Assembly (NCBI GenBank): GCA_943354045.1
Contig: CALRBF010000002.1
Span: 1-58,725 of the forward strand
Direction: 5' to 3'
DNA: 58,725 nt
Origin: Parcubacteria group bacterium
Lineage (GTDB): Bacteria > Patescibacteriota > Minisyncoccia > SW-4-49-11
Part shown: positions 14,275 to 39,856 of the stretch, piece by piece
How positions within the stretch are numbered: position 1 is the stretch's first letter
How the letters are laid out: the number at the start of each line of letters is the position of its first letter
Program-made: the position numbers and the translations under genes
Notes under the pieces: generated by a model
Databases searched by the model: none
Told to the model about the DNA's origin: nothing
Seen by the model: only the letters and a program-made list of their open reading frames with translations

Positions 14275-14299
14275 AAGCCACCCCAATAGGTGGCTTTTT
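14275..14299 (+). terminator. T-module terminator (AAGCCACC-loop-GGTGGCTTTTT)
   Basis: 8 bp stem plus a T run. Related copies are at 16936-16966, 17391-17420 and 18059-18087. Confidence 0.7.
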
Positions 14300-14301
14300 A
14301 A

Positions 14302-14418
14302 ATTCCCCTCTCTCCCTACGGTTTACCTACCGCAGGAAGGGAGATAAATTGAGGGCTTTCAGTCCCTCCCATACTTTAGTTTGGGAGGGGGTGCCGTCTT
14401 TTAGACGGTGGGGTGGAT
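14302..14418 (+). repeat. Mosaic hairpin-module repeat locus R2
   Basis: TCTCCCT-ACGGTTTACCTACCGCAGGA-AGGGAGA; GTCCCTCCCATACTTTAGTTTGGGAGGG; GGTGCCGTCTTTTAGACGGTGGGGTGGAT. Confidence 0.85.
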
Positions 14419-14537
14419 GTGTTCGGATCCCAATTCAACCTCAAATATGCTATAATACAAACATATAAATAAATATAAACTTATCCACTATGGAAAATAA
14501 TAATTCACTATTCTTTAATTATATTCTATAATAAAAC
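14414..14537 (+). promoter_or_regulatory. Leader module copy A: extended -10 promoter plus 13-codon uORF MENNNSLFFNYIL
   Basis: TGc-TATAAT at 14448-14456; uORF 14490-14531. About 95% identical to 18156-18280, and its first roughly 90 bp match 15753-15840. Confidence 0.65.
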
Positions 14538-14555
14538 CATATACTCAATCAAAAT

Positions 14556-15563
14556 ATGAAAAATATAACTCAATATCAAAATCTTGCACAGCATATATCC
14601 AAAATTCTTGAACAAAGAAGAAAAGAAGCCTTAAACAGTCTTAATACAATACTTTTACAAACTTATTGGGAAATAGGAAAAGCCATTGTGGAATTCGAAC
14701 AAGAAGGGAAGGTTAAAGCAGAATATGGCAAAGAATTACTAATTTCACTTTCCAAAGAACTTAAAAAGTATGGAAAAGGTTTTAGTAGAACCAACCTTCA
14801 ATATATGAGACTCTTTTATCTGTCTTTTCCCAAAATACCAGACGCGTCTGGCAAATTGACATGGAGTCATTATGTGGAAATTTTGGGAGTCTCTAATAAT
14901 CTTGCCCGCAACTTTTATGAAAAACAATGTATACTAGAAAACTAGTCAGTAAGAGAGCTCAAAAGACAAAAACAATCAATGTTATTCGAGAGATTTGCTC
15001 TAGGTAAGGATAAAAAGGAATTATTAAAACTGTCACACAAAGGACAAATAATCCAAAAAGCAGAAGATATTATCAAAGAGCCATATATTTTAGAGTTTTT
15101 AGGTATACCGGAACCTTATAATTTTTCAGAAGCAGAACTAGAACAAAAAATTATTGATAATTTACAAATGTTTTTGTTGGAATTAGGAAAGGGATTCACT
15201 TTTGTCAAAAGACAATTCCGTCTAAGTTTTGACAGTCGACATCATTATATAGATTTGGTATTTTATCATCGTATCCTGAAATGTTTTATACTAATTGACC
15301 TCAAAATTGGAGAAGCCGATCATACAGATATTGGGCAGATGAATATGTATTTAAACTATTTCAAAACCGAAGAAAATACACAAGGGGATAATGAGCCAAT
15401 AGGCATAATTTTAAGTGCAGCAAAAAATGATATTAAAATGGAATATGCAATGGGAGGAATAAGTAATCAAATGTTTGTATCCCAATATCAACTATATTTG
15501 CCAAAACCAGAAGAATTAGAAGCTGAAATAGAAAAATTCCTACCCCATACTGAAAATAATTAG
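14556..15563 (+). pseudogene. YhcG/DUF1016-family PD-(D/E)xK nuclease with an in-frame TAG
   Basis: ORFs 14556-14945 and 14979-15563 are in the same frame. TAG 14943-14945 sits where the family has Trp (..ILEN[W]SVRELKRQ..SMLFERFAL). C-terminal ID..DLK nuclease core. Confidence 0.75.
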
Positions 15564-15580
15564 ATCTAAATTGAGCAAAA

Positions 15581-15757
15581 TTCCCCTCTCCACCTACGGT
15601 TTACCTACCGCAGGCAGGTCGATAAATTGAGGGCTGTAAGTCCCTCCCATACTTTAGTTTGGGAGGGGGTGGTAGTCTTTTAGACGGTGGGGTGGAAGTA
15701 CTTGTCTCAATTTTTCTGTCCCCCTTTGGTGGGGGTGCCTGAAAGGTGGGGGTGGAT
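15581..15757 (+). repeat. Mosaic hairpin-module repeat locus R3
   Basis: Same module order as R2, plus GTCCCCCTTTGGTGGGGG and GGTGCCTGAAAGGTGGGGGTGGAT. Confidence 0.85.
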
Positions 15758-15820
15758 GTGTTCGGATCCCAATTCAACCTCAAATATGCTATAATATAAA
15801 TAAATATAAACTTATCCACT
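15753..15820 (+). promoter_or_regulatory. Leader module copy B (promoter of the Bro-N gene)
   Basis: Same block as copies A and C with an 8 bp deletion. TGc-TATAAT at 15787-15795. The shared ATGGAAAATAATAATTCACT is the real gene start here. Confidence 0.65.
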
Positions 15821-16669
15821 ATGGAAAATAATAATTCACTTGCTATTTTTGAGACATATAAAATTCGTCGACATTTTAATCAAGATACAGAGACCTGGTA
15901 CTTTTCTATAATAGATATAATAGCAGTATTAACAGAACAGCAAAATTTCAAAAAAGCTCAAAGCTACTGGACTACATTCAAAAACAGATTAAAAAAAGAG
16001 GGAAGTGAGTTTGTCACAAAATGTGACAAACTGAAATTAGAATCAGCAGATGGAAAATTTTATAAAACCGATGTAGCAGATGTAGAGACAATCTTGCGAC
16101 TGATTCAATCAATTCCAAGTAAAAAAGCCGAGCCAATAAAACTGTGGTTAGCCAAAGTTGGATATGAGCGAATGGAAGAAATGACCGATCCAGAAAAAGC
16201 TCTGAATAGGTCTAGAGAATATTGGCAAAAACAAGGAAGAAGCCAAAAATGGATACAACAGAGAATGACAGGTCAAGAAACAAAAAATAAATTAACCGAC
16301 TACTGGGCTCAAAATGGTGTATCAAGTGGGGCAGAATTTGCAATACTCACCAATATTATACATCAAGAATGGAGTGATATCTCTATAACCCAACATAAGA
16401 AGTTAAAAAACTTAAAGACACAAAATCTAAGAGACCATATGAGTGAAGAAGAGCTAATATTTACAGCATTAGCAGAACTATCCACAAGAAAAATTGCCGA
16501 GACAGAACAAACACAAGGACTGGAAGAAAATAAAATCCCAGCAATAAAAGGAGGTAAAATTGCTAAAGATGCAAGAAAAGCATTAGAAGAAAAAACAGGA
16601 AAATCCGTAATAACTGGAGAAAATTATTTAGTAGATAATAAAACATCTTTAATTGATAAAAAGAAATAA
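15821..16669 (+). CDS. Bro-N domain protein (phage antirepressor-like)
   Basis: N-terminus ..LAIFETYKIRRHFNQDTETWYFSIIDIIAVLTE.. is typical of Bro-N. 282 aa. Confidence 0.65.
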   Translation: MENNNSLAIFETYKIRRHFNQDTETWYFSIIDIIAVLTEQQNFKKAQSYWTTFKNRLKKEGSEFVTKCDKLKLESADGKFYKTDVADVETILRLIQSIPSKKAEPIKLWLAKVGYERMEEMTDPEKALNRSREYWQKQGRSQKWIQQRMTGQETKNKLTDYWAQNGVSSGAEFAILTNIIHQEWSDISITQHKKLKNLKTQNLRDHMSEEELIFTALAELSTRKIAETEQTQGLEENKIPAIKGGKIAKDARKALEEKTGKSVITGENYLVDNKTSLIDKKK

Positions 16670-18058: not shown

Positions 18059-18087
18059 AAAGCCACCCTCCCAGAGAGTGGCTTTTT
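18059..18087 (+). terminator. T-module terminator
   Basis: AGCCAC-CCTCCCAGAGA-GTGGCT followed by TTTTT. Confidence 0.7.
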
Positions 18088-18160
18088 AAATTCCCCTCTC
18101 CACCTACGGTTTACCTACCGCAGGTAGGTAGGCAGGGAGGGGGTGCCTGACGGGGTGGAT
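18088..18160 (+). repeat. Mosaic hairpin-module repeat locus R6
   Basis: AATTCCCCTCTCCACCTACGGTTTACCTACCGCAGGTAGGT... GGTGCCTGACGGGGTGGAT. Confidence 0.85.
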
Positions 18161-18280
18161 GTGTTCGGCTCCCAATTCAACCTCAAATATGCTATAATAC
18201 AAACATATAAATAAATATAAACTTATCCACTATGGAAAATAATAATTCACTATTCTTTAGTTATATTCTATAATAAAACT
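18156..18280 (+). promoter_or_regulatory. Leader module copy C: promoter plus uORF MENNNSLFFSYIL
   Basis: TGc-TATAAT at 18190-18198; uORF 18232-18273. Near-identical to copy A. Confidence 0.65.
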
Positions 18281-18297
18281 ATACATTAAATTAAAAT

Positions 18298-19163
18298 ATG
18301 AAAAATGAAATTATTTTATATAGACCAGATGATTTAGATGAGCATATAGAAGTAATGCTTAAACACGAAACTGTTTGGTTAAACAGACAGCAAATGGCTT
18401 CGCTTTTTGGTAGAGATGTGAAAACTCTTGGTAAACACATCAATAATGTTTTTTCGGAAGGAGAACTAGATAATATAGCAACTGTCGCAAAATTTGCGAC
18501 AGTTCAAAATGAAGGAGGCAGAAAGGTTGAGCGCCAAGTGGAGTATTACAATCTAGATGTTATAATATCAGTAGGGTACCGAGTAAAATCAAAACAAGGT
18601 ACACAATTTCGCATCTGGGCAACCAATATTTTACGAGACTATTTACTCAAAGGCTATGCACTGAATAATAGAATGAACAGAATAGAAGATAATATTCAAT
18701 CTTTGAGTGAAAAAGTAAATCAAATAGATTTACAAATACATACCAATACCATCCCAACCCAACCCAAGGAGTATTCTTTGAAGGACAAGTATTCGATGCC
18801 TATGAATTATTCTCAAAAATAATTCGCAAAGCCAAAAGTCATATAATCCTGATAGACAACTACATAGACGAGACCACCCTCATACATTTATCCAAAAAGA
18901 ACCCAAAAGTAAAAGCCCTCATATTAACCCATCCAATAAGCCAAGAATTAGAGCTAGATATACAGAAAGTCAATCAGCAATATGGAAACTTCAAAATAAA
19001 GAAATTTAATAAAAGCCATGATAGATTCCTCATCATAGATCAAAAAGAAATCTATCATCTCGGAGCCTCACTCAAAGATTTAGGCAAAAAACTCTTCGCC
19101 TTCAGTCTATTAGACACAAGTTCAGTACAAGATTTATTGAATAGAGTAAAAGATTTAGAGTGA
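18298..19163 (+). pseudogene. RhuM-family protein, frameshifted at a (CCCAA)3 tract
   Basis: N-terminal part ..VEYYNLDVIISVGYRVKSKQGTQFRIWATNILRDYLLKGY. The C-terminal part GVFFEGQVFDAYELFSKIIRKAKSHIILIDNYIDE...KDLE* is open in another frame up to TGA 19161-19163. Confidence 0.75.
18753..18767. repeat. Pentanucleotide tandem repeat (CCCAA)x3 at the RhuM frameshift point
   Basis: Three perfect units. Two units (or five) would put both halves of the gene in one frame (..IPTQGVFFEG..). Confidence 0.85.
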
Positions 19164-19171
19164 GTGTATTA

Positions 19172-19455
19172 TTGTCCTCTAATTCTTTCGTAGAGTCGGC
19201 GACCCCGCCGACATAGTTTTTTGTAGGGGCGACCTGTCAGTCGCCTGTATTTGGTGTTAAAAATCCCCCTCTCCACCTACGGTCGATAAATTGAGGAGTG
19301 GACAGCTTCGCTGGACGGGGTGGAAATGTTTTGCAAGGTGAGTTTCTGTCCTCCCTTGGGGGAGGTGTCACCGTAGGTGACGGAGGAGGACATAATTCAT
19401 AATTTGCAATTTATCCCCCTACCCAATTTATCGACCGTAGGTGGAAACCTCCACA
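19172..19455 (+). repeat. Mosaic repeat locus R7, including a unit bounded by 21 bp perfect inverted repeats
   Basis: TCGTAGAGTCGGCGACCCCGCCGAC; TGTAGGGGCGACCTGTCAGTCGCC. CCACCTACGGTCGATAAATTG (19273-19293) is the perfect reverse complement of 19424-19444. Confidence 0.85.
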
Positions 19456-19498
19456 AAAACATGCTACAATACAAACAATCATTAAACTCACACAATCT

Positions 19499-20101
19499 AT
19501 GAAAGGAGTAGTCTATATAATGACAACAGTAGTCGATGGACTAATAAAAATAGGACAAACAGGCAGTCAAAATTATCAAGAAAGGATGAGAAATCTAGAA
19601 TCAAATGGATACTACAATGTCTCAGGATTAAAGAGATTCTTTGCAATAGAACTAGAAGACTATACATATAAAGAAAATCTCCTCAAAGAAATTTTCACCA
19701 AACACAGAGTAGGAGACAGTGAGTTATTTGCCCTAGACTATGATTTGGTAAAACAATTACTCCTATCCTTTGAAGGAAAAGTAATATACCCAAAAGACAT
19801 AGATAAAGAAAAAGAATTCGATGAAATTTCAAAATCCAGAGAGCAAAGTGCAAAATTTAGTTTTTATAGAAAAGGCATACAAAATGGAGAAGAAATAGTA
19901 TTCATAGCAGATAAAGATATCACAGCAAAAGTCGTAGGCGAGAGAGATGTAGAATATGGAGGACAAGTTTTCAAACTATCCCCATTAACCCTAAAAATAT
20001 ATCAACAAAAAGGCAATAGCAATAAAAGTGGAGCCTATCACGGAGCAGCCTATTGGCAATATAAAGGTAAGAAGTTAAAAGATTTAATAGATATACAATA
20101 A
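19499..20101 (+). CDS. GIY-YIG / T5orf172 (MUG113)-domain protein
   Basis: GVVYIMT...GLIKIGQT...R...L N-terminal pattern. 200 aa. Directly upstream of hsdM. Confidence 0.6.
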   Translation: MKGVVYIMTTVVDGLIKIGQTGSQNYQERMRNLESNGYYNVSGLKRFFAIELEDYTYKENLLKEIFTKHRVGDSELFALDYDLVKQLLLSFEGKVIYPKDIDKEKEFDEISKSREQSAKFSFYRKGIQNGEEIVFIADKDITAKVVGERDVEYGGQVFKLSPLTLKIYQQKGNSNKSGAYHGAAYWQYKGKKLKDLIDIQ

Positions 20102-20158
20102 TCACTCCTCAAAAGGTGGGGGATATGGTATAATAGGGGTAAATAATATATATTTTTT

Positions 20159-21670
20159 ATGGCACAAGGTCAAAATCCCCATTTTGAAGCACAATTATTC
20201 AAAGCAGCAGATAAATTGCGTAAAAATATTGATGCGGCAGAATATAAAAATGTAGCTCTTGGACTTATTTTTCTTAAATACATTTCAGAATCTTTTCAAG
20301 AACTTTATGACAAATTAGCTCAGGATGAATTCAGTGATCCAGAAGACAGAGATGAATATATTTCTGAAAATATTTTCTTTGTACCCGAACAAGCAAGATG
20401 GAAAAATCTCCAAGCTAAAGCAAAGCTCCCAACTATTGGACAGGAGCTGGATGATGCAATGGAAGCAATCGAGAAAGAAAATCCCGAGCTCAAAAATGTA
20501 CTCCCAAAAGTATTTGGAAAACCTAATTTAGATAAAGCCTCACTCGGACAGTTGATTGACCTTATTTCGAATACAGAATTACAAGTAGAGAATACCAAAT
20601 CCAAAGATTTATTTGGAAGAGTATATGAATATTTCTTGGGAGAATTTGCAAATGCTGAAGGGAAAAAGGGAGGACAATTCTATACCCCAAAATCTATTGT
20701 CAAATTGATGGTAGAAATGATAGAGCCATATAAAGGAAGAGTATATGATCCCGCATGTGGTTCTGGAGGAATATTTGTAATGAGTGAAAAATTTGTAGCA
20801 GAGCATCAAGGGAATATCAAAGATATAACTATTTATGGGCAAGAATCCAATCAAACCACTTGGAAGCTCTCCAAAATGAATCTTGCAATTCGCAATATTA
20901 ACTCGAAATTTGTCGAATGGAATACTGAGGGAAGTTTTCTCAAAGATACTCACCCAGATCTCAAAGCCGATTATGTAATCGCAAATCCTCCATTTAATCA
21001 ATCAGATTGGGGACAAGATATACTTCAAGACGATGCAAGATGGAAATATGGAATACCACCAGCAGGGAATGCAAATTTTGGATGGATACAACATATGCTC
21101 TATCATCTTGCACCCAATGGAGTAATGGCAACCGTACTAGCTAATGGAAGCCTCTCATCTAATACTTCCGGAGAAGGGGAAATTCGTAAAAATCTCATAC
21201 AAAATGATTTGGTAGAATGTATCGTCGCACTCCCAAAACAACTCTTTTATAATACCGGAATACCCGCATGTATTTGGTTTCTTCGTCGTGAAAGACAAAT
21301 AAGAAAAAATGAAATTCTTTTCATCGATGCCTCAGATATGGGATTCCTCAAAGACCGAGTACATAGAGAGTTTACCGAGGAAGATATGAATACCATATCA
21401 GAGACTTATCATAATTGGAGAAAAGACCCTGACCAATACGAGGATATTAAAGGATTTTGTAAATCAGCATCAAGAGCAGAAGTAGAGAAACATAATTTTG
21501 TTCTCACACCTGGTCGTTATGTAGGGATAAAAGATATAGAAGATGATGGGATACCATTCGAAGAGAAAATGTATAAACTCACCACCACTCTTGCCGAGCA
21601 ATTCGCCAAAGAAGAAAAAATGAATGCAGAAATCAAAAAACAATTAGCAAAAATTGGATTTGAAATTTGA
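20159..21670 (+). CDS. hsdM: Type I restriction-modification system methyltransferase subunit
   Basis: HsdM_N-like N-terminus, [18 protein letters not shown] (SAM binding), NPPF motif IV ([12 protein letters not shown]). Confidence 0.92.
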
Positions 21671-21680
21671 TTACACATCT

Positions 21681-22502
21681 ATGATACATAACATATTTGA
21701 AAATATTAGAAAAATCAATGAATATAATCAAGAATTTTGGTCTGCTCGGGATCTGTATAAATTACTTGGATATACAGAGTATGGAAAATTTTTACCAGCA
21801 ATAGAAAGGGCAAAAAAAGCTTGTAAAAATAGCAAACAAGAAGTAAATTTGCATTTCGCTCAGGTGAGCGAACCCCAAAAATCCCGCAACCAATACGGAG
21901 AAACTCAAGGTCAGATTTTGGAAGATTATCATCTTTCTCGTTATGCCTGTTATCTTATAGCTCAAAATGGAGATCCAAGAAAAGAAGAGATCGCATTTGC
22001 TCAAACATACTTTGCAATTCAGACAAGGAAGCAAGAGCTAAATGACGAATTTCTGGAAGATCATAAAAGAGTACTCCTCAGAGATGAGATGAAAGAACAT
22101 AATAAAAATCTTGCTAAAGCAGCAAAAGAAGCGGGAGTTGTGAATTATGCAAATTTTCAAGATTATGGATATATGGGACTTTATGGTGGAATGAGGCAAA
22201 GAGATATTTATACAAAAAAGAAATTAAAAGAAAAAGAAACAATACTTGATCATATGAATAGTGAAGAGCTTGCTGCAAATCTCTTCCGGGCAACGCAAGC
22301 TGAAGCTAAGCTTAAAAGAGAAAATATTATTGGACAAGAAAAAGCAAATCGAGCACATCTTGATGTTGGTAAAAAAGTAAGAGAAACAATTAGAGATCTT
22401 GGTGGAACAATGCCAGAAAACCTTCCAACACCTGATAATATTAGAGAATCAAAAAAGAGAGTAAAACAACTATCTAAGAAATTATTATCCAACAAAGAAT
22501 AA
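21681..22502 (+). CDS. DinD-like (DNA-damage-inducible protein D family) protein
   Basis: MIHNIFENIRKINEYNQEFWSARDLYKLLGY...YHLSRYACYLIAQNGDP. ATG 21681 is preferred over the TTG 21654 of the ORF track. Confidence 0.65.
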   Translation: MIHNIFENIRKINEYNQEFWSARDLYKLLGYTEYGKFLPAIERAKKACKNSKQEVNLHFAQVSEPQKSRNQYGETQGQILEDYHLSRYACYLIAQNGDPRKEEIAFAQTYFAIQTRKQELNDEFLEDHKRVLLRDEMKEHNKNLAKAAKEAGVVNYANFQDYGYMGLYGGMRQRDIYTKKKLKEKETILDHMNSEELAANLFRATQAEAKLKRENIIGQEKANRAHLDVGKKVRETIRDLGGTMPENLPTPDNIRESKKRVKQLSKKLLSNKE

Positions 22503-22503
22503 T

Positions 22504-23730
22504 ATGGCTGATACTACCTCATCTATACCAACAAAAAATTCCCCTCTTGAGGGGTGTCAGATGAAATCTGACGGGGTGGATTATCTTCCAAGCGATTGGG
22601 TAGAGACGACTTTGGGGGAGGTTGTAGAAACAGTAATTGATAATCGCGGAAAAAATCCAAGTTATTATACTGAAAAAGGTATTCCTGTAATTGATAATGT
22701 TTTAATAAAAGAAAATAGAAGAATTGATTTGAAAGAAGCTAGAAGATTTATAGATGATAATTTATATAATAATTTTATCCGTAAACACGGGGAAAGTAGT
22801 GATGTAATAATTACTTTAGTTGGTAATGGGTACGGGAATATTGCTTTATTTCCTAATGAAAAAAGTGTAATTATTCAAAATACAGTTGGATTAAGAGTAA
22901 ATAAAAAATCAGATAATTTGTTTTTGTATTATTTACTAAAAAAAGATAAGAAAAAAATATTAGATCTAAATATTGGTGCGGCACAGCCAAGTGTAAAAGT
23001 TGGAGATTTATTAAATATTAAATTTCTTCTCCCCCCTCTCCCTGAACAAAAAGCAATAGCCTCAATACTTAGTGCATTTGATGATAAGATTGAGCTATTG
23101 AGAGAGCAAAACAAAACCTTAGAAGAGATGGGACAGACAATATTCAAAGAATGGTTTGGGAAATATGGAGTAGATGATGAGCTACCCGAAGGGTGGAAAG
23201 TTGGGAAGTTGGGGGAAGAGTTAGTAATTAAACAAGGTAAATATCTTGAAGCAGAAAATTTATCAGAAGCTCCAACAGAAGAAAAAAAATATCCCATTTA
23301 TGGTGGTAGTGGTATTCGTGGTTATATAGAAGATTTTATGTATGAAAAACCTATGGTATTTTTGACTTGTAGAGGAAATGGCTGTGGTTTAATTCAGTTT
23401 TCAAAGGAACAATCAAGTATTACAAATTCTTGTATGGCTTTTGAAAATATAGATTCGCCATTAAGTTCAGAGTTTATTTATTTTTTATCAAAGAAAATTG
23501 ATTTTGAAAGTGTTACTTCTGGTTCAGCACAACCTCAAATTACAGTTACAAATTTGTATAATTTAGAAATAATTATTCCAGATCAAGAAACTTTGAAACA
23601 ATTTGACGAAGAAATAAAACCAATTTTTATAAAAATCAGAGACAATTCAGAACAAATCCAATCCCTCGCTCGTAGTCGTAATGAGTTGTTACCAAAGTTG
23701 ATGAGTGGAGCGGTGAGGGTTGAGTTTTAG
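22504..23730 (+). CDS. hsdS: Type I R-M specificity subunit
   Basis: Two target-recognition halves separated by LPPLPEQKAIASIL..DDKIELLREQNKTLEEMGQTIFKEWF, with a C-terminal ..LLPKLMSG. A possible alternative start is ATG 22561, because codons 12-26 are a repeat module. Confidence 0.88.
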   Translation: MADTTSSIPTKNSPLEGCQMKSDGVDYLPSDWVETTLGEVVETVIDNRGKNPSYYTEKGIPVIDNVLIKENRRIDLKEARRFIDDNLYNNFIRKHGESSDVIITLVGNGYGNIALFPNEKSVIIQNTVGLRVNKKSDNLFLYYLLKKDKKKILDLNIGAAQPSVKVGDLLNIKFLLPPLPEQKAIASILSAFDDKIELLREQNKTLEEMGQTIFKEWFGKYGVDDELPEGWKVGKLGEELVIKQGKYLEAENLSEAPTEEKKYPIYGGSGIRGYIEDFMYEKPMVFLTCRGNGCGLIQFSKEQSSITNSCMAFENIDSPLSSEFIYFLSKKIDFESVTSGSAQPQITVTNLYNLEIIIPDQETLKQFDEEIKPIFIKIRDNSEQIQSLARSRNELLPKLMSGAVRVEF

Positions 23731-23745
23731 TTTTTAAGGATAAGT

Positions 23746-24501
23746 ATGAAAATATCATCAAAAACAATAGATTACTTAAAAGATATTATTATTGGGGATT
23801 CTCAAAAAAGTCCTTATTTATCAGGACCTCAACTTGTAGAGTTTTTTAATGAGCTTGGGTGGCAAGATATATATGGGCAAGGATTCCCTGCGAGGTGGGA
23901 ATATACAAAGAGAAAATTGCTCGAATTAAATCAACTAGATAGGATTGAAGAAATAATAGAGTATTATTATAGTCCAATACACTTTATTGAAGATAAAGAG
24001 AGATATAAATATTTAATTAAAGAATTGAATGAATATCTTGCTTTTGATGACCTGGAGTTAGTTATAATGGGTAAAATAGTGAAATTAACTAAACAAACAA
24101 AAGAAATTGATATCATTTCAGAAGCAAGTTTTTCAGATAATACAATTTCCATTGTTCTACAAAAAAATGTGTTTGATCATGTGAAAACTTTACTTAATTC
24201 AGGGCATTATTATAATGCTGTGGAAGAATCTTATAAAATCGTGAGAGAAAAACTTAAATCTATTACTGGAGAAGAACAGGCACACAAGGCTTTCAAAGAA
24301 GATAATTGTGAAAAAATCTTTGGGCATGAGCCACAAAATGATGCAGAAAAAGATTTTTTTGAAGGAGTAAAATATCTACACATGGCAATTCAAAATTTAA
24401 GAAATGAAAAATCTCATACTCCAGCACAAGAATTAGATAAGAATTTAGCAATTCATTATATTGTTTTAGCAAGTTTAGCTTATGATTTGATAAATATATG
24501 A
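23746..24501 (+). CDS. TIGR02391-like protein with an N-terminal AbiJ-NTD-like region
   Basis: C-terminal ..LLNSGHYYNAVEESYKIVREKLK...YLHMAIQNLRNEKSHT... matches my recollection of the TIGR02391 signature (GHY..AV.E ... RN..(S/A)H). Confidence 0.55.
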   Translation: MKISSKTIDYLKDIIIGDSQKSPYLSGPQLVEFFNELGWQDIYGQGFPARWEYTKRKLLELNQLDRIEEIIEYYYSPIHFIEDKERYKYLIKELNEYLAFDDLELVIMGKIVKLTKQTKEIDIISEASFSDNTISIVLQKNVFDHVKTLLNSGHYYNAVEESYKIVREKLKSITGEEQAHKAFKEDNCEKIFGHEPQNDAEKDFFEGVKYLHMAIQNLRNEKSHTPAQELDKNLAIHYIVLASLAYDLINI

Positions 24502-25511
24502 AAGTAAAAGTAATTTTTGACACTAATATTATTAAAGATACTAACCCTGAGTCTTTTCTTGGTGGTAGAGTTGAGCTTCAAAAGTTTGCAGAAATAGCAG
24601 AAATTATTTTACCAGATTTAGTAATTGAAGAGTTAAAATGTCAAAAAAGAAAAGAGCTTGAAAAGAATAAGGGATTATTTTTGAAGAATCCTTTTCATTG
24701 GTTAAGAAATATCAATCAAGAAGATACGGAAAACTTTGATAATGAAGCCCATATTACGGAATTAGAAAACAAAGAAGATATAAAGTATACTATAATACAT
24801 TTAAAAAATCATTCAGTATTGGATCAAATAAAAGAGTTAGCAATTAATGAACTTCCACCATTTCAAACGGGTGGAAAAGGATTCAAAGATACTTATATCT
24901 ATTTTACAATTTTAGAATATTTACAAACTATACCAGATAAGTATGTTTTTGTATGTACAAAAGATAAAGTATTTCAAACAGCATTACAAAAACATCTAAA
25001 TATTAAAGTGATAGAAAACTTTGAAGAATTTGAAAAAAATATAGGTTTAAATATACCTAGTGAATACACTTTACAAGAAATTCAAGAATTATATGAGGGA
25101 ATTGAATATAGAGATAAGTGGTTAAATATTGAGAATAATTGGGTATTATCTTTTACAGAAAAAAATCATAAGAGGTTCATTTTATTTGATTCTGTAGCAA
25201 ATGAGATGATAGGTACTGTAGTATCTACACAAGATTTAAGTATATTATTAGCAGACTTAAATGAAGATAAATCGTATAATGATATGGGAATCTTCATAAG
25301 AGGATTAGAAAAATATTATTTATATTTTTCTAAAGATCATTTTTTACAAATATTACAAAGCTCAACAGATAATTATTGTATTTATAATTCTCAGATTGCG
25401 AGGGGAGAAATTAAAAAAATATTTAATAGAAATGATAATACCAAAAATTTTTTAAATACCACTGATGATTTATGGGAACAGTTTATTCAAAAGTATAATT
25501 TTCAATCATAA
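24498..25511 (+). CDS. PIN-like (DUF4935-like) domain protein
   Basis: N-terminus KVIFDTNIIKD..LPDLVIEEL is PIN-like. ATGA start/stop overlap with the upstream gene. 337 aa. Confidence 0.45.
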   Translation: MKVKVIFDTNIIKDTNPESFLGGRVELQKFAEIAEIILPDLVIEELKCQKRKELEKNKGLFLKNPFHWLRNINQEDTENFDNEAHITELENKEDIKYTIIHLKNHSVLDQIKELAINELPPFQTGGKGFKDTYIYFTILEYLQTIPDKYVFVCTKDKVFQTALQKHLNIKVIENFEEFEKNIGLNIPSEYTLQEIQELYEGIEYRDKWLNIENNWVLSFTEKNHKRFILFDSVANEMIGTVVSTQDLSILLADLNEDKSYNDMGIFIRGLEKYYLYFSKDHFLQILQSSTDNYCIYNSQIARGEIKKIFNRNDNTKNFLNTTDDLWEQFIQKYNFQS

Positions 25512-25531
25512 TATTACCTAATCACAACACC

Positions 25532-28500
25532 ATGACTACTCTCAATGAATCCCATATAGAACAGACCTTGATAGATATCCTTGTAGCTCAAGGCTATCAG
25601 TATTTTTATGGTCCAGATATTGCTCCGTATTCAGCTAATCCCCAACGAGAAAATTTTGATAGTGTGATCCTCGAAAATCATCTCAAGGAATCCCTCAAAA
25701 GATTAAATCCAGATATCCCTGAATCAGCAAGGCATGAGGCCTATCAGCATATTATGAATCTTGGCTCTTCTGATTTTATGGCAAATAATGAAAAATTTCA
25801 TAATTATCTAACTGATGGGATTACGGTTGAATACTTTAAAGATGAGGCTATAAAGGGTATCAATGTAAAGCTTCTTGATTTAGAGAATATTGCCAACAAT
25901 AGCTTTTGGGTAGTGAATCAATTTGTGGTAAAAGAACAAAATAATGAGAAGAGATTGGATGTGGTGATTTTCGTGAATGGGCTTCCATTAGTTGTGGTGG
26001 AATTAAAGAATGCAACTGATGAGAAGGCTACTTTGGAGAGGGCTTTTATGCAAATTCAGAATTATCAAAAAGCTATCCCAAGTATTTTTTATTATAATGC
26101 TTTATGTATTATCTCGGATGGGATTGAGGCGAAGGTTTCGAGTGTATCTGCTCCATTTAGTAGATATCTTGCTTGGAAATCTCCTGAGAAAGAGGAGAAT
26201 AACATTCCTGAAATGCAGATTATGGCTGAGAAAATGCTTGATAAAGAGGTTTTGCTTCGATTGATTCGATATAATACGGTTTTTGAACAAGAGGAGCAAA
26301 AGGATGAGAAGACGGGGTTATTATCTGTGGTAAAAATTAAGAAAATTGCGGCTTATCATCAATATTATGCGGTGGAAAAGGCGGTAAAGGAAACGGTGAG
26401 GGCTACTGATGAATCTGAGGGTAATAGGAAAATTGGGGTTATTTGGCATACTCAGGGTTCAGGGAAATCTCTTTCTATGGTGTTTTATACGGGGCAAATT
26501 GTGGTAGAGCCTGTGATGAAGAATCCAACTGTGGTGATTTTGACGGATAGGAATGATCTTGATGATCAACTTTTTACTACTTTTGGGAATTGTAAACAAT
26601 TATTGAGACAAACTCCTGTGCAGGCGGAGAATAGGGAACATTTGAAGGAATTACTGAAGGTTTCGGGTGGAGGTATTGTGTTTACGACTATTCAAAAATT
26701 TGCTCCTACTTCAGGAAATGTATATGAGATGTTATCTGAGCGGTCGAATATTGTGGTGGTAGCTGATGAGGCTCATCGGAGTCAATATGGATTCAAGGGT
26801 AGAGAGGTTGAGATAGAGGATGGTTCGGAGATTCGATATGGGAATGCGAAGTATCTGAGAGATGCTTTACCGAAGGCTTCTTTTATTGGGTTTACAGGTA
26901 CTCCTATTGAGAAGGAGGATAGGTCAACGCGTAATGTGTTTGGTGATGAAATTGATATTTATGATATTAAACAAGCGGTGGATGATGGGGCTACGGTTCC
27001 GATTAGTTATGAATCGCGTTTGGTAAAAATTCGATTGAATCAAGAGGTGGCAAGTCAGATTGATTATGCGGTGGATGAAATAGTGGGAGCAACACAGGAG
27101 CAAAAAGAAAAGGCGAAAAAGAAAAATGCTCAAATTGATGCTATTGTAGGGCATCCTGATAGGCTAAAGGATATTGCAAAAGATATTGTGGAGCATTTTG
27201 AGGCGAGGCAGCAAACCTTTGAGGGGAAGGCTATGGTAGTTTGTATGACGAGGCAAATTGCGGTGAATCTATATCGAGAAATTATTACTCTTCGTCCAGA
27301 ATGGCATAGTGATGAGTTGATGCAGGGGATGATTAAAATTGTAATGACTTCAAGTAGTGATGATCCTGAAAGTTTCCAATCTCATCATACGACGAAAGAG
27401 GATAGAAAAAAACTTGCCCTGAGGCTGAAGGATATTAATGATTCTCTTCAGATGGTGATTGTGCAATCTATGTGGTTAACGGGATTTGATGTGCCATGTC
27501 TCAATACGATGTATATTGATAAAAAGATGCAGGGTGCCAATTTGATGCAGGCTATTGCTCGGGTGAATCGGGTATATCGGGATAAACCAGGAGGACTTAT
27601 TGTTGACTATATTGGTATTGGGCAGGATCTCAGAAATGCGATGGGTGTCTATACGCAAAGTGGTGGCCAGGGAAAAGCTATTCTTGATATCTCGGAGGTG
27701 ATTGCGGGTATGAAGACTAAATTTGAGATTGTGGAGCAGATGTTCCATGGCTTTGATTATAAGCAATATTTTCAGGTTGAAAATAAGGAAAAATTACAGA
27801 TATTATTGGGAGCTTCAAACTTTATATTACGGGATGATAAGTTGAAGAATAGATTTCTTGCAGAAATTACGGCTTTGTCTCAATTATTTGCGATGGCGGT
27901 GCCAAGTTTTGAATCAGAACAAATACGAGATGAGGTGGCATTCTTTCAAGCGATAAAAGCTCGTATTAATAAATTCACTCCTAGTGGTGGTGTATCTGAT
28001 AGGCAGGTAGAAACGGCAGTAAGGCAAATTGTTGATGAGGCTTTAGCGAGTGATGGTGTGGTGGATGTGTTCGAAGCAGCAGGTATACAAACTCCTACTC
28101 TTGATATTTTGTCAGAGGAATTTTTGCTTGAGGTGAAGAATATGGAGCAAAAAAATATAGCTTTTGAATTACTTCGCAAACTTATTAATGATGAGGTGAA
28201 GGTGAGAAAAACAAAGAGTATAGCTCAAGGGAAAAAGTTTTCTGAGATGTTGGAACGGGTGATTAAAAAGTATCATAATAATCAAATTGATACGGCCCAG
28301 GTTATTCAAGAACTTTCTCAAATCGCTCGGGAGATGAAATTAGAGGATAGTAAAGCTGAGGAATTGGGATTATCTCCTGAGGAATATGCATTTTATTCGG
28401 TGCTCGCACAAAATGATTCCACAAGATTTTTGCAGGATGATAAGATGAAAGAGTTGATTCATGTTATCGTGGAGATTATTCGTAAAAATGCGACGGTTGA

Positions 28501-28651
28501 TTGGGAGAAGAGAGAGGATGTCAGAGCTAAACTTCGTCTTACGGTCAAAAAAATTCTAATCAGGTACGGGTATCCACCTGATCTCGCAAGAATAGAAGCT
28601 GATAAAGTTCTTGAGCAAAGTGAATTATTGGCTAAGGAGTTAACTCAATAA
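25532..28651 (+). CDS. hsdR: Type I restriction endonuclease subunit R
   Basis: N-terminal nuclease region (..DVVIFVNGLPLVVVELK), helicase motif I HTQGSGKS, DEAH box VVADEAHRSQ, QAIARVNR. 1039 aa. Confidence 0.93.
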   Translation: MTTLNESHIEQTLIDILVAQGYQYFYGPDIAPYSANPQRENFDSVILENHLKESLKRLNPDIPESARHEAYQHIMNLGSSDFMANNEKFHNYLTDGITVEYFKDEAIKGINVKLLDLENIANNSFWVVNQFVVKEQNNEKRLDVVIFVNGLPLVVVELKNATDEKATLERAFMQIQNYQKAIPSIFYYNALCIISDGIEAKVSSVSAPFSRYLAWKSPEKEENNIPEMQIMAEKMLDKEVLLRLIRYNTVFEQEEQKDEKTGLLSVVKIKKIAAYHQYYAVEKAVKETVRATDESEGNRKIGVIWHTQGSGKSLSMVFYTGQIVVEPVMKNPTVVILTDRNDLDDQLFTTFGNCKQLLRQTPVQAENREHLKELLKVSGGGIVFTTIQKFAPTSGNVYEMLSERSNIVVVADEAHRSQYGFKGREVEIEDGSEIRYGNAKYLRDALPKASFIGFTGTPIEKEDRSTRNVFGDEIDIYDIKQAVDDGATVPISYESRLVKIRLNQEVASQIDYAVDEIVGATQEQKEKAKKKNAQIDAIVGHPDRLKDIAKDIVEHFEARQQTFEGKAMVVCMTRQIAVNLYREIITLRPEWHSDELMQGMIKIVMTSSSDDPESFQSHHTTKEDRKKLALRLKDINDSLQMVIVQSMWLTGFDVPCLNTMYIDKKMQGANLMQAIARVNRVYRDKPGGLIVDYIGIGQDLRNAMGVYTQSGGQGKAILDISEVIAGMKTKFEIVEQMFHGFDYKQYFQVENKEKLQILLGASNFILRDDKLKNRFLAEITALSQLFAMAVPSFESEQIRDEVAFFQAIKARINKFTPSGGVSDRQVETAVRQIVDEALASDGVVDVFEAAGIQTPTLDILSEEFLLEVKNMEQKNIAFELLRKLINDEVKVRKTKSIAQGKKFSEMLERVIKKYHNNQIDTAQVIQELSQIAREMKLEDSKAEELGLSPEEYAFYSVLAQNDSTRFLQDDKMKELIHVIVEIIRKNATVDWEKREDVRAKLRLTVKKILIRYGYPPDLARIEADKVLEQSELLAKELTQ

Positions 28652-28667
28652 AGATAAATAATCACCT

Positions 28668-28907
28668 ATGAAACTCTTCCGCTACCGTAAACCATCGCTC
28701 AAAACATTACTTGGAGTGACAAAAGTAAAGCGTAGGATAAAGAAGGCTACAGGGATTTCTGCAGTGCAATCTCTCAGTCCTTCTCGAGTTAAGCAAAAAA
28801 TCAAATACAATATAGGGTATAATAAACCTATTTTCAAACATACCAGAGAACTGAGCAAGGGCAAAGTCCCGAGTCTGTTGGGCTGGTTTTCAAAATTGTT
28901 TAAGTAA
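28668..28907 (+). CDS. Small very basic protein (79 aa), last gene of the R-M transcription unit
   Basis: ORF starts 16 nt after hsdR. Its last 120 nt (28788-28907) are duplicated at 30084-30203. Confidence 0.45.
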   Translation: MKLFRYRKPSLKTLLGVTKVKRRIKKATGISAVQSLSPSRVKQKIKYNIGYNKPIFKHTRELSKGKVPSLLGWFSKLFK

Positions 28908-28918
28908 GAAAACTACCT

Positions 28919-29032: not shown

Positions 29033-29125
29033 AAGGGGGGTATGAGCATAGTTGCTTTTAAAGATTTTGAAGCAGTTTTTGCGGTAAATTAAGCAAATGG
29101 TATATGGTCAATTTGTTTTATAAGA

Positions 29126-29154
29126 TTGACAAAATTAATAAAATGTGCTATAAG
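29126..29154 (+). promoter_or_regulatory. Promoter of cassette a
   Basis: TTGACA-AAATTAATAAAATGTGC-TATAAG. Member of the TTGACAAAAT..AAATGTGCTAT promoter-module family. Confidence 0.7.
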
Positions 29155-29179
29155 AAGATTGTCTATCTTTTGCACCTTT

Positions 29180-29545
29180 ATGTTTTCTCAAAAGATCAAG
29201 GAAGAGCTTCGCAAGCTCAAACATGATCGGGTTTTGATGCTCGGAGCAATTCAACGCTTGGAGCTTCTTCTTGAAGGCCCTGATCCTGTTTTGGACTCAG
29301 AGGCCTATAAGAGGTATGGTGACGAGCTTGATCATCTGGAGGATGATATGGAGAAATCCCTCCGAGTGGATTCGAAGCGCGCCTTTGAGGGAGCGTTTCG
29401 AAAGATTCAGTCTGGTATGGATGATGAGTATCTCTATCGGATTCTCGCCGAGCAAGCACGAACCATTCTCCGACATCAACGTCGGAAATCTTTGAGGAAG
29501 AATCAAAGATTTCCTCTTCGTACATTGTTGGGGATAATCTTTTAA
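29180..29545 (+). CDS. Hypothetical helical, charged protein (cassette a, GC-rich)
   Basis: ATG 29180 is downstream of the promoter (the ORF-track TTG 29126 is the -35 box). About 50% GC. Confidence 0.5.
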   Translation: MFSQKIKEELRKLKHDRVLMLGAIQRLELLLEGPDPVLDSEAYKRYGDELDHLEDDMEKSLRVDSKRAFEGAFRKIQSGMDDEYLYRILAEQARTILRHQRRKSLRKNQRFPLRTLLGIIF

Positions 29546-29563
29546 ACCTCTTTGAGGATATTA

Positions 29564-29596
29564 ATCCATGGAGCTTAATGCTCTATGGATTTTTTT
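29564..29596 (+). terminator. Rho-independent terminator
   Basis: ATCCATGGAGC-TTAAT-GCTCTATGGAT followed by TTTTTT. Confidence 0.7.
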
Positions 29597-29662: not shown

Positions 29663-30010
29663 CTATTGCCTCCAATTGATCACCGTTCTGGTGGAGCTGG
29701 TGGGGCCAAAACGAATGCCCCATACATCTAGGGAGATCTTTGTTCCTTTGGGAAGGGCAGAGATAGCTCCATAGGTGTCAGAACTCCTGAAATGTCCTGT
29801 CAGCAAGTCATCCTTGATATCGAATGTCTCCTGTTCACAGAACAGTCTGTAGGCGTTTCCTGTCCCAGTGCGGACATTTTCCGCCTTGATCACCGTGCAG
29901 GGAACTCCTGCGAAATAGGTGGTCGGTCGCAATGTCCCTACCACGAGGGCGATAGCTCCCACTACAATGAAAGTTAGAATTAGGTTAGAGTTGTTGTCTG
30001 AGTTGGACAT
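29663..30010 (-). CDS. Hypothetical N-terminally membrane-anchored protein (cassette b, GC-rich), ends ..VINWRQ*
   Basis: 115 aa with a TM helix at residues 10-30. Has its own promoter and terminator. Confidence 0.5.
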   Translation of the reverse strand: MSNSDNNSNLILTFIVVGAIALVVGTLRPTTYFAGVPCTVIKAENVRTGTGNAYRLFCEQETFDIKDDLLTGHFRSSDTYGAISALPKGTKISLDVWGIRFGPTSSTRTVINWRQ

Positions 30011-30036: not shown

Positions 30037-30065
30037 AATGATAGCACATTTCCCTAATTTTGTCA
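30037..30065 (-). promoter_or_regulatory. Promoter of cassette b
   Basis: Minus strand: TTGACA-AAATTAGGGAAATGTGC-TATCAT. Confidence 0.7.
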
Positions 30066-30083
30066 ATGGTAGATAACTAATGT

Positions 30084-30203
30084 GGTTAAGCAAAAAATCA
30101 AATACAATATAGGCTATAATAAACCTATTTTCAAACATACCAGAGAACTGAGCAAGGGCAAAATCCCAAGTTTATTCGGCTGGTTTTCAAAATTGTTTAA
30201 ATA
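30084..30203 (+). repeat. D2: duplicate of the 3' 120 nt of the small basic protein gene
   Basis: About 92% identical to 28788-28907. Encodes ..KQKIKYNIGYNKPIFKHTRELSKGKIPSLFGWFSKLFK*. Confidence 0.8.
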
Positions 30204-30231
30204 AAAAAAATCCCCCGGCGAGGTGTCGGGG
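30202..30231 (-). terminator. Rho-independent terminator of cassette c
   Basis: CCCCCG-9 nt-CGGGGG with an A8 run on the plus strand. Confidence 0.6.
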
Positions 30232-30617: not shown

Positions 30618-30646
30618 AACATAGCACATTTTGCTAATTTTGTCAA
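30618..30646 (-). promoter_or_regulatory. Promoter of cassette c
   Basis: Minus strand: TTGACA-AAATTAGCAAAATGTGC-TATGTT. Confidence 0.7.
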
Positions 30647-30686
30647 TAGTATATGACTAAAAATTTCTTATATCAAAAAATAAAGT

Positions 30687-30787: not shown

Positions 30788-30829
30788 CATTTATTGATTA
30801 ATAGATATTGGGTTTGATATAATGTATTT

Positions 30830-31039
30830 ATGAAAGAATATATTATATTTTTAGATGAATCTGGAGATCATAACTTAGTAAAGTATGATATTCAATATCC
30901 TATTTTTACTTTGGTAGGGTGTATTTTTGAAAAAGTATATTATGAGGAGCAAGTTATTGCTAAAGTAAATAAGCTTAAAATTAATCATTTTAATAATAAA
31001 AATACCATATTACATTCTTATGTCCTTTTTCTATATTAA
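30830..31039 (+). pseudogene. DUF3800-family gene fragment (N-terminal 69 aa only)
   Basis: MKEYIIFLDESGDHN.. is the DUF3800 N-terminal motif. The ORF stops far short of the family's usual length. Confidence 0.5.
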
Positions 31040-32518: not shown

Positions 32519-32718
32519 ATTCCACCCCTTAATCAAAGATACCACCCCCTCCCAAACTAAAGTATGGGAGGGACTGAAAGCCCTCGATTTATCGACCTGC
32601 CTGCGGTAGGTAAACCGTAGGTGGAGAGGGGAATTAGCTCAATCCACCTCTGGCACTCCGTGCCACCCCCTCCTAAATAAATATAGGAGGGACTTAAAGC
32701 TCCTCTAAAGGAGGACAA
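32519..32718 (-). repeat. Mosaic hairpin-module repeat locus R8 (inverted orientation)
   Basis: Reverse complements of the S, L and P modules, then ATCCACCTCTGGCACTCCGTGCCACC, L, and CTCCTCTAAAGGAGGAC. Confidence 0.85.
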
Positions 32719-37090: not shown

Positions 37091-37132
37091 CCTAAATTCT
37101 AAATCTACTCATTATATGCTACAATAGCCTAT

Positions 37133-37774
37133 ATGATAATTCCTATTAATAAACCCGCTGGGATCACTTCTCACACCGTAGTCAATAAATTACGCCGATT
37201 TTATGGTATCAAAAAGATTGGGCATGCCGGAACTCTTGACCCTTTTGCCACTGGAGTATTAATTCTGCTTGTAGGACGTGAGTCTACCAAAAAAAGCGAT
37301 ACTCTTATGAAACAAGATAAAATATACCGTACAAAGCTAAAATTAGGCTTTATAAGTGATACGTATGATAAAGATGGAGTCATACAAGAATATAATACTG
37401 ATATTATCCCTACTCGAGAACAAATAGAATTGGTAGTCAAGCAATTCATAGGGGAAATACAGCAAATACCACCTATGTATTCAGCTATCAAAATCAATGG
37501 CAAGAAAATGTATGAATTAGCCCGTAAAGGTGAACATATAGATATACCTGCTCGTAATGTTAGCATCACTCGTATTGATATATTAGAATATACCTATCCC
37601 TATATCACATTAGACATATATTGTGCTAGTGGGACTTATATCAGGTCCCTTGGATATGATATTGGTATTAAACTCGGAACAGGAGCTTATCTCGAGGAAT
37701 TGGAGCGCAGACAATCAGGAGAATATCCTATTGAGAGTTGCTATACCCTGGATACTTTACCAGAATTGAAATAA
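37133..37774 (+). CDS. truB: tRNA pseudouridine(55) synthase
   Basis: GHAGTLDPFATGVLILLVG catalytic Asp motif. 213 aa. Confidence 0.9.
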   Translation: MIIPINKPAGITSHTVVNKLRRFYGIKKIGHAGTLDPFATGVLILLVGRESTKKSDTLMKQDKIYRTKLKLGFISDTYDKDGVIQEYNTDIIPTREQIELVVKQFIGEIQQIPPMYSAIKINGKKMYELARKGEHIDIPARNVSITRIDILEYTYPYITLDIYCASGTYIRSLGYDIGIKLGTGAYLEELERRQSGEYPIESCYTLDTLPELK

Positions 37775-39770: not shown

Positions 39771-39856
39771 AATCCACCCCGTCTGCATAAAAGCAGACAC
39801 CCCTCAATTTATCTCCCTTGCCTACGGCAGGTAAACCGTAGGGAGAGAGGGGAATT
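39771..39856 (-). repeat. Mosaic hairpin-module repeat locus R10 (inverted orientation)
   Basis: ATCCACCCCGTCTGCATAAAAGCAGACACC plus the reverse complement of the P module. Confidence 0.8.

Follow-up and report, generated by a model that had tools for sequence, protein, structure and literature searches.

The 58,725-nt stretch of DNA analyzed here (the window; contig CALRBF010000002.1 of a Parcubacteria group bacterium) encodes a type I restriction-modification (RM) operon, in which genes of other families are interspersed among the hsd genes. The unit under study occupies positions 19499-28907 and comprises eight open reading frames (ORFs), all located on the plus strand in the six-frame ORF list and separated, according to their coordinates, by gaps of 57, 10, 1, 15, -4, 20 and 16 nt, in that order (Table 1). 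A DinD-like gene is embedded in the junction between hsdM and hsdS (the M-S junction), and the genes for a Ymh-type and a PIN_12 protein are embedded in the junction between hsdS and hsdR (the S-R junction), all three on the operon strand. The T5orf172 gene flanks the hsd genes and is not embedded. A reading made earlier from the letters of the DNA (the original prediction) had listed the same eight genes, with the same order, strand and gaps, and these were reproduced exactly by the ORF coordinates. An identical copy of the operon is present on a 119.9-kb ENA contig.

Table 1. Positions in the window of the RM unit, its signals and the neighboring defense genes.
Feature	Position	Strand	Evidence or remark
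T5orf172 (GIY-YIG superfamily), 200 aa	19499-20101	+	PF10544; PADLOC PDC-S57
hsdM, type I methyltransferase subunit, 503 aa	20159-21670	+	N6_Mtase; HsdM_N; PADLOC MTase_I
DinD-like (Bro-N plus DinD C-terminal region), passenger of the M-S junction	21681-22502	+	NF008573; PDC-S13
hsdS, specificity subunit, 408 aa, two target-recognition domains	22504-23730	+	Methylase_S
Ymh/TIGR02391, AbiJ-NTD1-like N-domain plus HEPN domain	23746-24501	+	PF09509; TIGR02391
PIN_12/DUF4935, 337 aa	24498-25511	+	PF16289
hsdR, restriction/translocase subunit, 1039 aa	25532-28651	+	TIGR00348
Basic protein of 79 aa, last gene of the unit	28668-28907	+	Codon-position bias; protein family
Central cassette (M-S passenger, hsdS, Ymh N-domain), exchanged segment	21663..24106	+	No DNA homology to locus L035 except 161 nt
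Terminator-like hairpin (7 pairs, 6 of them G-C, then a T-run)	19195..19212	+	End of the preceding RhuM cassette; marks the 5' limit of the unit
Promoter P1, extended -10 box TGCTACAAT	19462-19470	+	Upstream of T5orf172
Promoter P2, extended -10 box TGGTATAAT, in the T5orf172-hsdM gap	20126-20134	+	24 nt before the hsdM ATG
YhcG/DUF1016 PD-(D/E)XK nuclease, split (129 + 194 aa)	14556-15563		PDC-S02
Second DinD paralogue, stand-alone, 282 aa	15821-16669		PDC-S13, 386 bits
RhuM, frameshifted near 18760	18298-19162		PDC-S05
DUF3800 fragment, 69 aa	30830-31039		
RhuM fragment, 155 aa	32811-33278		

Protein families were assigned in scans of Pfam, NCBIfam and PADLOC (v2.0.0) against curated cut-offs. 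HsdM matched N6_Mtase (PF02384, 378 bits) and HsdM_N (PF12161, 89 bits), both over the full length, as well as the PADLOC MTase_I model (687 bits). HsdS matched Methylase_S (PF01420, 120 bits) in two stretches and the PADLOC Specificity_I models over its full length (e.g., residues 30-407 of 408), while HsdR matched TIGR00348 (600.8 bits) and contains HSDR_N (168 bits), SWI2_SNF2 (265 bits), T1RH-like_C (390 bits) and T1R_D3-like regions. By these domains, hsdM, hsdS and hsdR are a complete and intact type I RM gene set, for which both methylation and restriction are predicted. Among solved structures HsdR matched only the HsdR subunits of EcoR124I/II (E about 4e-35), a relationship too distant for a subtype (IA-IE) to be called, and such a call was rejected. 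The other proteins likewise exceeded their cut-offs: T5orf172 (PF10544, 29.6 bits versus 20, residues 3-88; PDC-S57, 184.8 bits), DinD (equivalog NF008573, 342 bits versus 242, residues 10-280 of 282; PDC-S13, 354 bits), Ymh (Hypoth_Ymh PF09509, 55.4 bits versus 25; TIGR02391, 95.4 bits versus 39.45) and PIN (PF16289, 46.9 bits versus 32). The family calls of the original prediction were thereby upheld, the 79-aa protein alone being left without a family; the profile scans recognized no DNA-binding domain in it either. In the same scans no mobility domains were detected among the passengers.

The box of promoter P1, which when written as TGCTACAATA spans 19462..19471, lies 28 nt ahead of the T5orf172 start, within a 21-nt repeat that is also present upstream of RhuM. 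The pattern TGCTAYAATA occurs six times in the window versus 0.67 expected, in all cases upstream of gene starts, which renders the promoter proposed at this position credible. It had been taken for the only clear one, but a second such box (P2) precedes hsdM. Boxes of the P2 type are also found before hsdM in the two nearest relatives (at -26 in locus L035 and at -23 in locus L002), and L002 keeps the box yet lacks the T5orf172 gene. Consequently, hsdM is probably transcribed from a promoter of its own. The T5orf172 gene is probably a separate upstream cassette, whose transcript would be able to read through, and not the leading cistron of the hsd operon. The looser pattern TGNTAYAAT occurs 25 times in the window (10.6 expected), mostly 6-60 nt ahead of start codons; no copy was found on the plus strand between 20159 and 28907, where chance expectation is only ∼0.8. 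The terminator-like sites within the unit (at 26986, 27729 and 28868) are all weak, with three G-C pairs each, and the first strong plus-strand site is at 29563-29591, in agreement with the earlier statement that no terminator is encountered until past 28907. A generic sigma-70 scan of the 12.5-kb region containing the unit was uninformative (43 matches versus 47.6 expected).

Some of the TGNTAYAAT boxes of the window end only 6-7 nt before an ATG (e.g., 30815-30823, ATG at 30830; 37117-37125, ATG at 37133). Boxes so close to a start codon imply that this genome would produce leaderless or near-leaderless mRNAs.

Exchange of the operon center among relatives

A survey of related loci returned 59, of which 34 carry hsdM, hsdS and hsdR in the same order; a junction was considered occupied when it exceeded 500 bp. 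By this measure the S-R junction is occupied in 30 of the 34 loci and the M-S junction in 12, with both occupied in 12 and neither in 4. The interleaved layout, described originally as unusual, is therefore common in this group, and embedding has also been published: in the "guilt-by-embedding" survey of Payne, Hughes, Fineran and Jackson (2024; bioRxiv 10.1101/2024.01.29.577857), type I systems were reported to hold embedded genes "frequently", 96.7% of them co-oriented. The relatives examined here resemble that description, in that non-hsd genes lie between hsd genes in the same orientation (of the 98 junction ORFs of at least 60 aa, 91 share the strand of the operon, and a single locus holds as many as seven). 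Moreover, three to five proteins of the window match PDC models from the Payne survey (T5orf172, PDC-S57; DinD, PDC-S13; RhuM, PDC-S05; YhcG, PDC-S02). The present locus differs in that its PIN_12 protein matches no PADLOC v2.0.0 model, its T5orf172 gene is in a flanking position, and its host is a bacterium of the candidate phyla radiation known only from metagenomes. The locus is thus a new instance of a published pattern of embedded defense, and no new concept is needed to describe it.

The junction passengers of the relatives fall into ∼70 unrelated sequence clusters, which makes the two slots hypervariable, and include GmrSD, McrB/McrC, Shedu SduA_C, KwaB, Fic, RhuM, NTase_sub_bind HEPN, PD-(D/E)XK and YhcG families, together with AAA_15/OLD-like ATPases, DUF6119, DUF3800, Mrr, KilA-N and ORF6N. 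The genes of the window are sporadic among the 34 relatives: PIN was detected in five of them, DinD in two or three (L022 and L026), parts of Ymh in two (L002 and L035), the 79-aa gene in the same two, and T5orf172 in L035 alone (98% identity). Even L035 carries a RhuM gene in the place of DinD. By the refuting condition attached to the original prediction itself (passengers that are sporadic in relatives), the suggestion that the genes form a composite unit, co-inherited as a set with hsdMSR, is not supported. The accompanying phrase of the original prediction, "co-regulated layered immunity", fares better: the tight packing on one strand, the lack of a convincing promoter or terminator after hsdM and the membership of the passengers, as predicted nucleases or sensors, in defense-associated families make it a fair description of what the sequence suggests, once the composite unit is set aside.

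The closest relatives of the HsdR protein are encoded by Patescibacteria metagenome-assembled genomes (Magasanikiibacteriota, Paceibacterota, Gracilibacteria and Peribacteria; 79-89% identity), followed by Flavobacteriia (∼71%), a distribution indicating that the hsdR clade has clearly moved between phyla. HsdM and HsdR are 70-93% identical among relatives, in contrast to HsdS, which in most of them is only 28-44% identical. A repeat scan for phase-variable hsdS revealed no inverted hsdS half-genes and no recombinase.

The comparison with L035, a Paceibacteria metagenome-assembled genome, is the most informative, as blocks of 86-96% DNA identity span positions 13.1-40.7 kb of the window, which points to a related organism as the source of the window. 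The homology breaks off 7 nt short of the hsdM stop codon, at 21663, and restarts at 24106, within the Ymh gene at its domain boundary; between these positions, it is restricted to 161 nt at the 3' end of hsdS, and the two HsdS proteins are 41% identical. G+C content at third codon positions (GC3) is 16-21% in DinD, hsdS, Ymh and PIN, versus 25% in hsdM and 34% in hsdR. Across 47 PIN-carrying loci, pairwise identities are tightly correlated between HsdM and HsdR (Spearman coefficient 0.94) and only loosely between HsdS and HsdR (0.42) or between PIN and HsdR (0.41; Mantel test, 0/999 permutations). Together, the mosaicism relative to L035, the contrast in GC3 and the difference between loose and tight coupling demonstrate that the center of the operon shuffles within a conserved hsdM/hsdR frame.

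In a further relative, L062, 51 nt from the start of hsdR, ATG included, are repeated ahead of both extra passengers (positions of the repeated sequence in L062: 9054-9104, 9951-10001 and 11076-11126), and one copy was observed in L134 (at 7927). As a general insertion scar this duplication was rejected, being present in only two of 80 loci (L062 and L134; none in a shuffled control). It is a real trace, though found only now and then, of recombination that was anchored where hsdR begins. Both junctions act as exchangeable cassette sites in this hsdR clade, which has been transferred widely, with breakpoints at the 3' end of hsdM, at domain boundaries inside passenger genes and at the 5' end of hsdR.

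Embedded proteins and the surrounding defense island

The PIN_12 protein carries four acidic residues (D8, E45, D131 and D156) that are invariant across 45 homologues. A Foldseek search of its full-length AlphaFold2 model (predicted local distance difference test score, 89) against the PDB gave no match at E ≤ 0.001, a result that is silent on the C-terminal region. From sequence and model, the protein is a predicted metal-dependent ribonuclease (RNase) with an additional C-terminal region of beta-sheet and helices. Its genomic context was analyzed by scanning metagenomes with the family alignment, a locus being informative when at least 1.5 kb of upstream or downstream DNA was available. Directly upstream of PIN, hsdS was found in all 53 informative loci, mostly at a gap of 0-45 nt, and hsdR was downstream in 42 of 46; the four loci without it represent truncated or very distant matches. 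Five contexts inspected one by one were all consistent with the order hsdS-PIN-hsdR. No antitoxin-like partner adjoining PIN was conserved across the loci, and a tblastn search of 72,556 plasmids with the PIN protein produced no match at 1e-10. In a survey of the PIN superfamily, DUF4935 genes were described as usually monocistronic (PMC5499597).

The Ymh protein consists of an N-domain (approximately residues 1-120) and a HEPN domain (residues 138-250) bearing the motif R219-x4-H224 (RNEKSH). R219 is invariant in an alignment of four sequences, and H224 is shared by the three sequences of the Ymh type, the divergent C-domain of L002 lacking it. The N-terminal part matched the PADLOC profiles Stk2 (residues 8-191, E 1e-13) and AbiJ (residues 13-223, E 4e-8), which makes it a candidate AbiJ-NTD1-type domain, and a partial match to PD-Lambda-3_B was also obtained. 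The protein is therefore predicted to combine a sensor with an RNase. An architecture of AbiJ-NTD and Ymh HEPN domains, "in operon with R-M", has been described by Anantharaman et al. (2013; PMC3710099), who proposed that the RNase is kept in check by the N-domain, which would be the sensor of a phage component. The protein of the window resembles these AbiJ/Ymh HEPN proteins in its putative AbiJ-NTD-type N-domain, in its C-terminal HEPN domain with R-x4-H, and in the recombination of its N-domain with different effectors: in L035 the same HEPN domain follows a different N-domain, while in L002 the N-domain of the window precedes a different C-domain. It differs in being translationally coupled to the PIN_12 gene, the Ymh stop overlapping the PIN start by 4 nt (ATGA). 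The same coupled pair recurs in L035 and L062, whereas elsewhere PIN mostly follows hsdS directly. No published description of a Ymh-PIN_12 pairing was found in the literature.

The PIN gene itself is mosaic in comparison with its L062 homologue (P0004, L062 8001-9050): the C-terminal halves are near-identical and the N-terminal PIN domains much diverged, so that the proteins share 67% identity overall, versus 97% for the adjoining Ymh proteins.

The DinD family comprises more than 8000 matches, and identity across phyla reaches 70-88%. Alternative TTG start codons of the DinD gene are present at 21654 and 21660, and the start at 21654 would create a 17-nt overlap with hsdM; the 10-nt gap is likelier, because the homologues, of ∼270 aa, align with 99-100% of the protein read from the ATG. 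Homologue lengths were taken from the best 120 of the more than 8000 matches, all of which are stand-alone proteins of that size, and a DinD-HsdS fusion was rejected on this basis. The sole hint of a fusion is the PADLOC specificity-subunit profile PDLC03083, which includes an N-terminal DinD-like region and which, given the 1-nt gap between DinD and hsdS, could be an annotation artefact. Control by LexA via a dinD promoter of its own is unlikely here, since the 10-nt gap leaves DinD without an upstream intergenic region. Three contexts of DinD homologues were sampled: one occupies the M-S junction of another type I clade (L147) and two are outside RM operons, one of the latter among housekeeping genes. 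The family is clearly promiscuous and not bound to RM systems, its genes being lodged in operons unrelated to defense as well. In L148 (7001-7825), a homologue 74% identical to that of the window is inserted between kdpC and kdpD, in a potassium-transport operon.

Upstream of the RM unit, members of the passenger families occur as stand-alone genes. The DNA of the split YhcG gene is 80% identical to an intact L002 gene that is embedded between hsdM and hsdS, and the same gene is thus stand-alone in the window and embedded in L002. The RhuM protein is 99% identical in its N-terminal part to an intact L035 orthologue of ∼290 aa, and its frameshift denotes either a pseudogene or an assembly error. 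On visual comparison, the second DinD paralogue resembles the M-S passenger of L036. Downstream of the unit, the DUF3800 and RhuM fragments look like remnants of more defense cassettes. A repeated intergenic module of ∼200-280 nt precedes each stand-alone cassette (14280-14560, 15565-15825, 18070-18300 and 19245-19500), and the positions 32615-32631 and 39836-39852 (minus strand) belong to the same set of repeats. It opens with CCCCTCTCCACCTACGG (six copies versus none expected), continues with G+C-rich hairpins and ends in a TGCTAYAATACAAAC box. Ahead of YhcG and RhuM, the two copies of the module are near-identical up to the ATG. These repeats suggest that the cassettes may be exchanged or driven via a shared promoter/leader unit. 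Rfam and tRNA scans for an integration site detected no RNA gene close to the island; the closest tRNAs are located at 48-58 kb. Lineages of the candidate phyla radiation are considered to depend mainly on restriction systems and not on CRISPR, and the locus documents a dense, partly decayed defense island in such a genome.

Probable independent back-up or possible dependence on the restriction enzyme

The interpretation that we favor, and consider probable, is that a complete type I RM operon (T1RH-like HsdR clade, distantly related to EcoR124I) resides in a Paceibacteria-like defense island and holds second-line defense genes in both of its junctions, which would act as an independent back-up. 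The operon would be transcribed from the box before hsdM and by read-through from the T5orf172 box, and HsdMSR would restrict unmethylated DNA as the first line of defense. The passengers would serve as independent back-up modules, mostly suicidal RNases (possibly joined by DinD and T5orf172), which phage components or a failure of restriction would trigger, such that abortive infection stops the phages that escape. Passengers and hsdS alleles would be exchanged jointly, through recombination anchored at the hsdM 3', hsdS 3' and hsdR 5' ends. The autonomy of the passengers is argued by the stand-alone occurrence of the same families next door, by the identity of the YhcG gene with the L002 passenger, and by the finding that a RhuM (PDC-S05) gene alone protected Escherichia coli against T7, T5 and T4 (bioRxiv 10.1101/2024.09.26.614923). 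The passengers of TgvAB, in the type I RM cluster of Vibrio cholerae VPI-2, defend independently of HsdR (PMC11411939). In that system and in the rlo genes of Campylobacter jejuni type I loci, where passengers within a functional operon are documented by experiment or by comparison, a type I operon is interrupted, as here, and GmrSD-like genes also occupy the S-R slot of relatives of the present locus; however, a single junction is interrupted there and both are here, and type IV restriction is carried in place of RNases and DinD.

Four observations weigh against this interpretation. The residence of PIN almost only in the hsdS-hsdR slot argues that this passenger is not autonomous; the PDLC03083 profile hints at a DinD-HsdS fusion, and hence at functional coupling rather than independence; the stand-alone YhcG is split and RhuM frameshifted, so that some such genes may be on their way out; and the promoter and terminator calls are matches to a consensus that may not be this lineage's own.

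The first of these is the basis of the main rival, according to which PIN_12, and possibly Ymh, is held latent by HsdMSR, as PrrC is by EcoprrI, and is freed by a phage anti-restriction protein. We regard this as possible but unlikely. The nearly invariable position of PIN after hsdS and before hsdR, on which all singly inspected contexts agree, the lack of a conserved antitoxin-like neighbor and the invariance of the catalytic acidic residues all speak in its favor, and PrrC occupies the same slot in EcoprrI (hsdM-hsdS-prrC-hsdR), where it too is almost exclusively RM-embedded. On the other hand, PrrC combines an ABC-ATPase and a HEPN nuclease in one chain, whereas a PIN protein and a separate AbiJ-NTD1-like Ymh HEPN protein are encoded here; profile scans detected no ATPase domain in either, and PIN contains no other domain known to contact HsdMSR. 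In the absence of an ABC-ATPase-HEPN protein, the locus is, by its gene content, not a PrrC system, and both the masking by an RM complex and the activation by an anti-restriction peptide are properties of PrrC that would have to be postulated for PIN. Furthermore, the full-length PIN model has no PDB match, the co-divergence of PIN and HsdR is moderate (rho 0.41), and only five of the 34 clade loci carry PIN, meaning that the RM system does not need it. The linkage may also stem simply from a route of recombination that is particular to these operons, and the model cannot cover all of the passengers, as DinD is not RM-bound. By analogy, then, the linkage of PIN suggests, though only tentatively, a PrrC-like dependence on the restriction complex, and the idea in the original prediction of accessory factors that modulate HsdMSR is left open for the PIN protein only, because its family is almost never found outside the slot. 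A more elaborate version, which we consider doubtful, would make PIN_12 a PrrC analogue dependent on one type I clade and silenced by HsdMSR until a phage anti-restriction factor appears, coupled here with the sensor-HEPN RNase into a two-RNase back-up, with the 79-aa protein serving as the last gene of an RM-exchange hotspot or as its constant anchor for recombination. The strict residence of the PIN_12 subfamily between hsdS and hsdR makes it a concrete candidate, open to testing, for another "restriction guard" besides PrrC.

The remaining explanations are considerably less probable than independent back-up defense. The passengers might tune the RM enzyme, for example with DinD damping RecA filaments or mediating restriction alleviation (the DinD protein of E. 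coli is reported to inhibit RecA filaments) and with the 79-aa protein as a DNA-binding controller. Translational coupling is suggested by the gaps of 10 nt between hsdM and DinD and 1 nt between DinD and hsdS, the PADLOC HsdS profile with its DinD-like region points the same way, DinD recurs in the M-S junction of an unrelated type I clade, and the 79-aa protein follows RM operons of two types. Most relatives, however, have an intact hsdMSR without DinD or the 79-aa gene, DinD homologues occur in kdp and housekeeping contexts, the 79-aa protein displays no recognizable DNA-binding domain, and in L150 its gene is upstream of the RM genes rather than downstream, all of which renders such a regulatory role improbable. 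We are similarly skeptical that the operon is a genomic sink, in which selfish or decaying hitch-hikers, useless to this host, are merely tolerated. This idea has been discussed in the literature and would account for the high turnover of passengers and for the broken neighbors of the same families (the split YhcG, the frameshifted RhuM, and the DUF3800 and RhuM fragments), but none of the three embedded genes, nor the 79-aa gene, is truncated, the catalytic residues of PIN and HEPN are conserved, DinD homologues maintain 70-88% identity across phyla, and the 79-aa gene has accumulated its substitutions mainly at the third position of codons. Least probable of all is that each passenger has its own unrecognized promoter or terminator, its close packing simply mimicking co-regulation. 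A second promoter box does exist before hsdM, the consensus employed may be foreign to this lineage, and sigma-70-like matches are no rarer than chance; nevertheless, gaps of -4 to 20 nt are too small for the promoter-leader modules of the stand-alone cassettes, and neither a plus-strand TGNTAYAAT box from 20159 to 28907 nor a strong terminator inside the unit is evident.

The 79-aa gene and the 3' edge of the unit

The terminal gene of the unit encodes a basic protein (isoelectric point 11.5; 22 lysine and arginine residues) that belongs to a family of 117 proteins of ∼79 aa. In its two orthologues in L035 and L002, third codon positions account for 18 of 22 and 22 of 27 nucleotide differences. 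Owing to this bias and to the existence of the family, the ORF is considered a real gene under purifying selection. Homologues trail RM operons of two types at distances of 16-85 nt. In L151 (5001-5237; 61% identity) the gene follows, by 16 nt, the Res gene of a type III Mod-AIPR-Res operon, in which AIPR is embedded, and in L152 (5001-5240; 90%) it comes after a type III Mod-Res-KAP NTPase unit. In L150 (1874-2113; 62%) the homologue precedes the genes of a further type I system. The DNA that the window shares with L152 starts 2 nt ahead of the ATG of the 79-aa gene, and from this sequence boundary the gene appears to mark the fixed 3' edge of a hotspot at which whole type I and type III RM systems are exchanged. 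The downstream flank, comprising a small minus-strand gene and then RhuM, is conserved in the window, L035 and L152.

A second copy of the 3' half of the 79-aa gene is situated 1.3 kb further downstream (28788-28917 and 30085-30214; 130 nt, 92% identity). The duplicates flank an insert with two convergent small ORFs (29126-29545 on the plus strand and 29663-30010 on the minus strand) and bidirectional terminators between them, and 41-nt inverted repeats with TTGACA-type promoters are present at 29111-29151, 30041-30081 and 30621-30660. The insert is absent from L035 and L152 and looks like the insertion of a cassette that duplicated its target.

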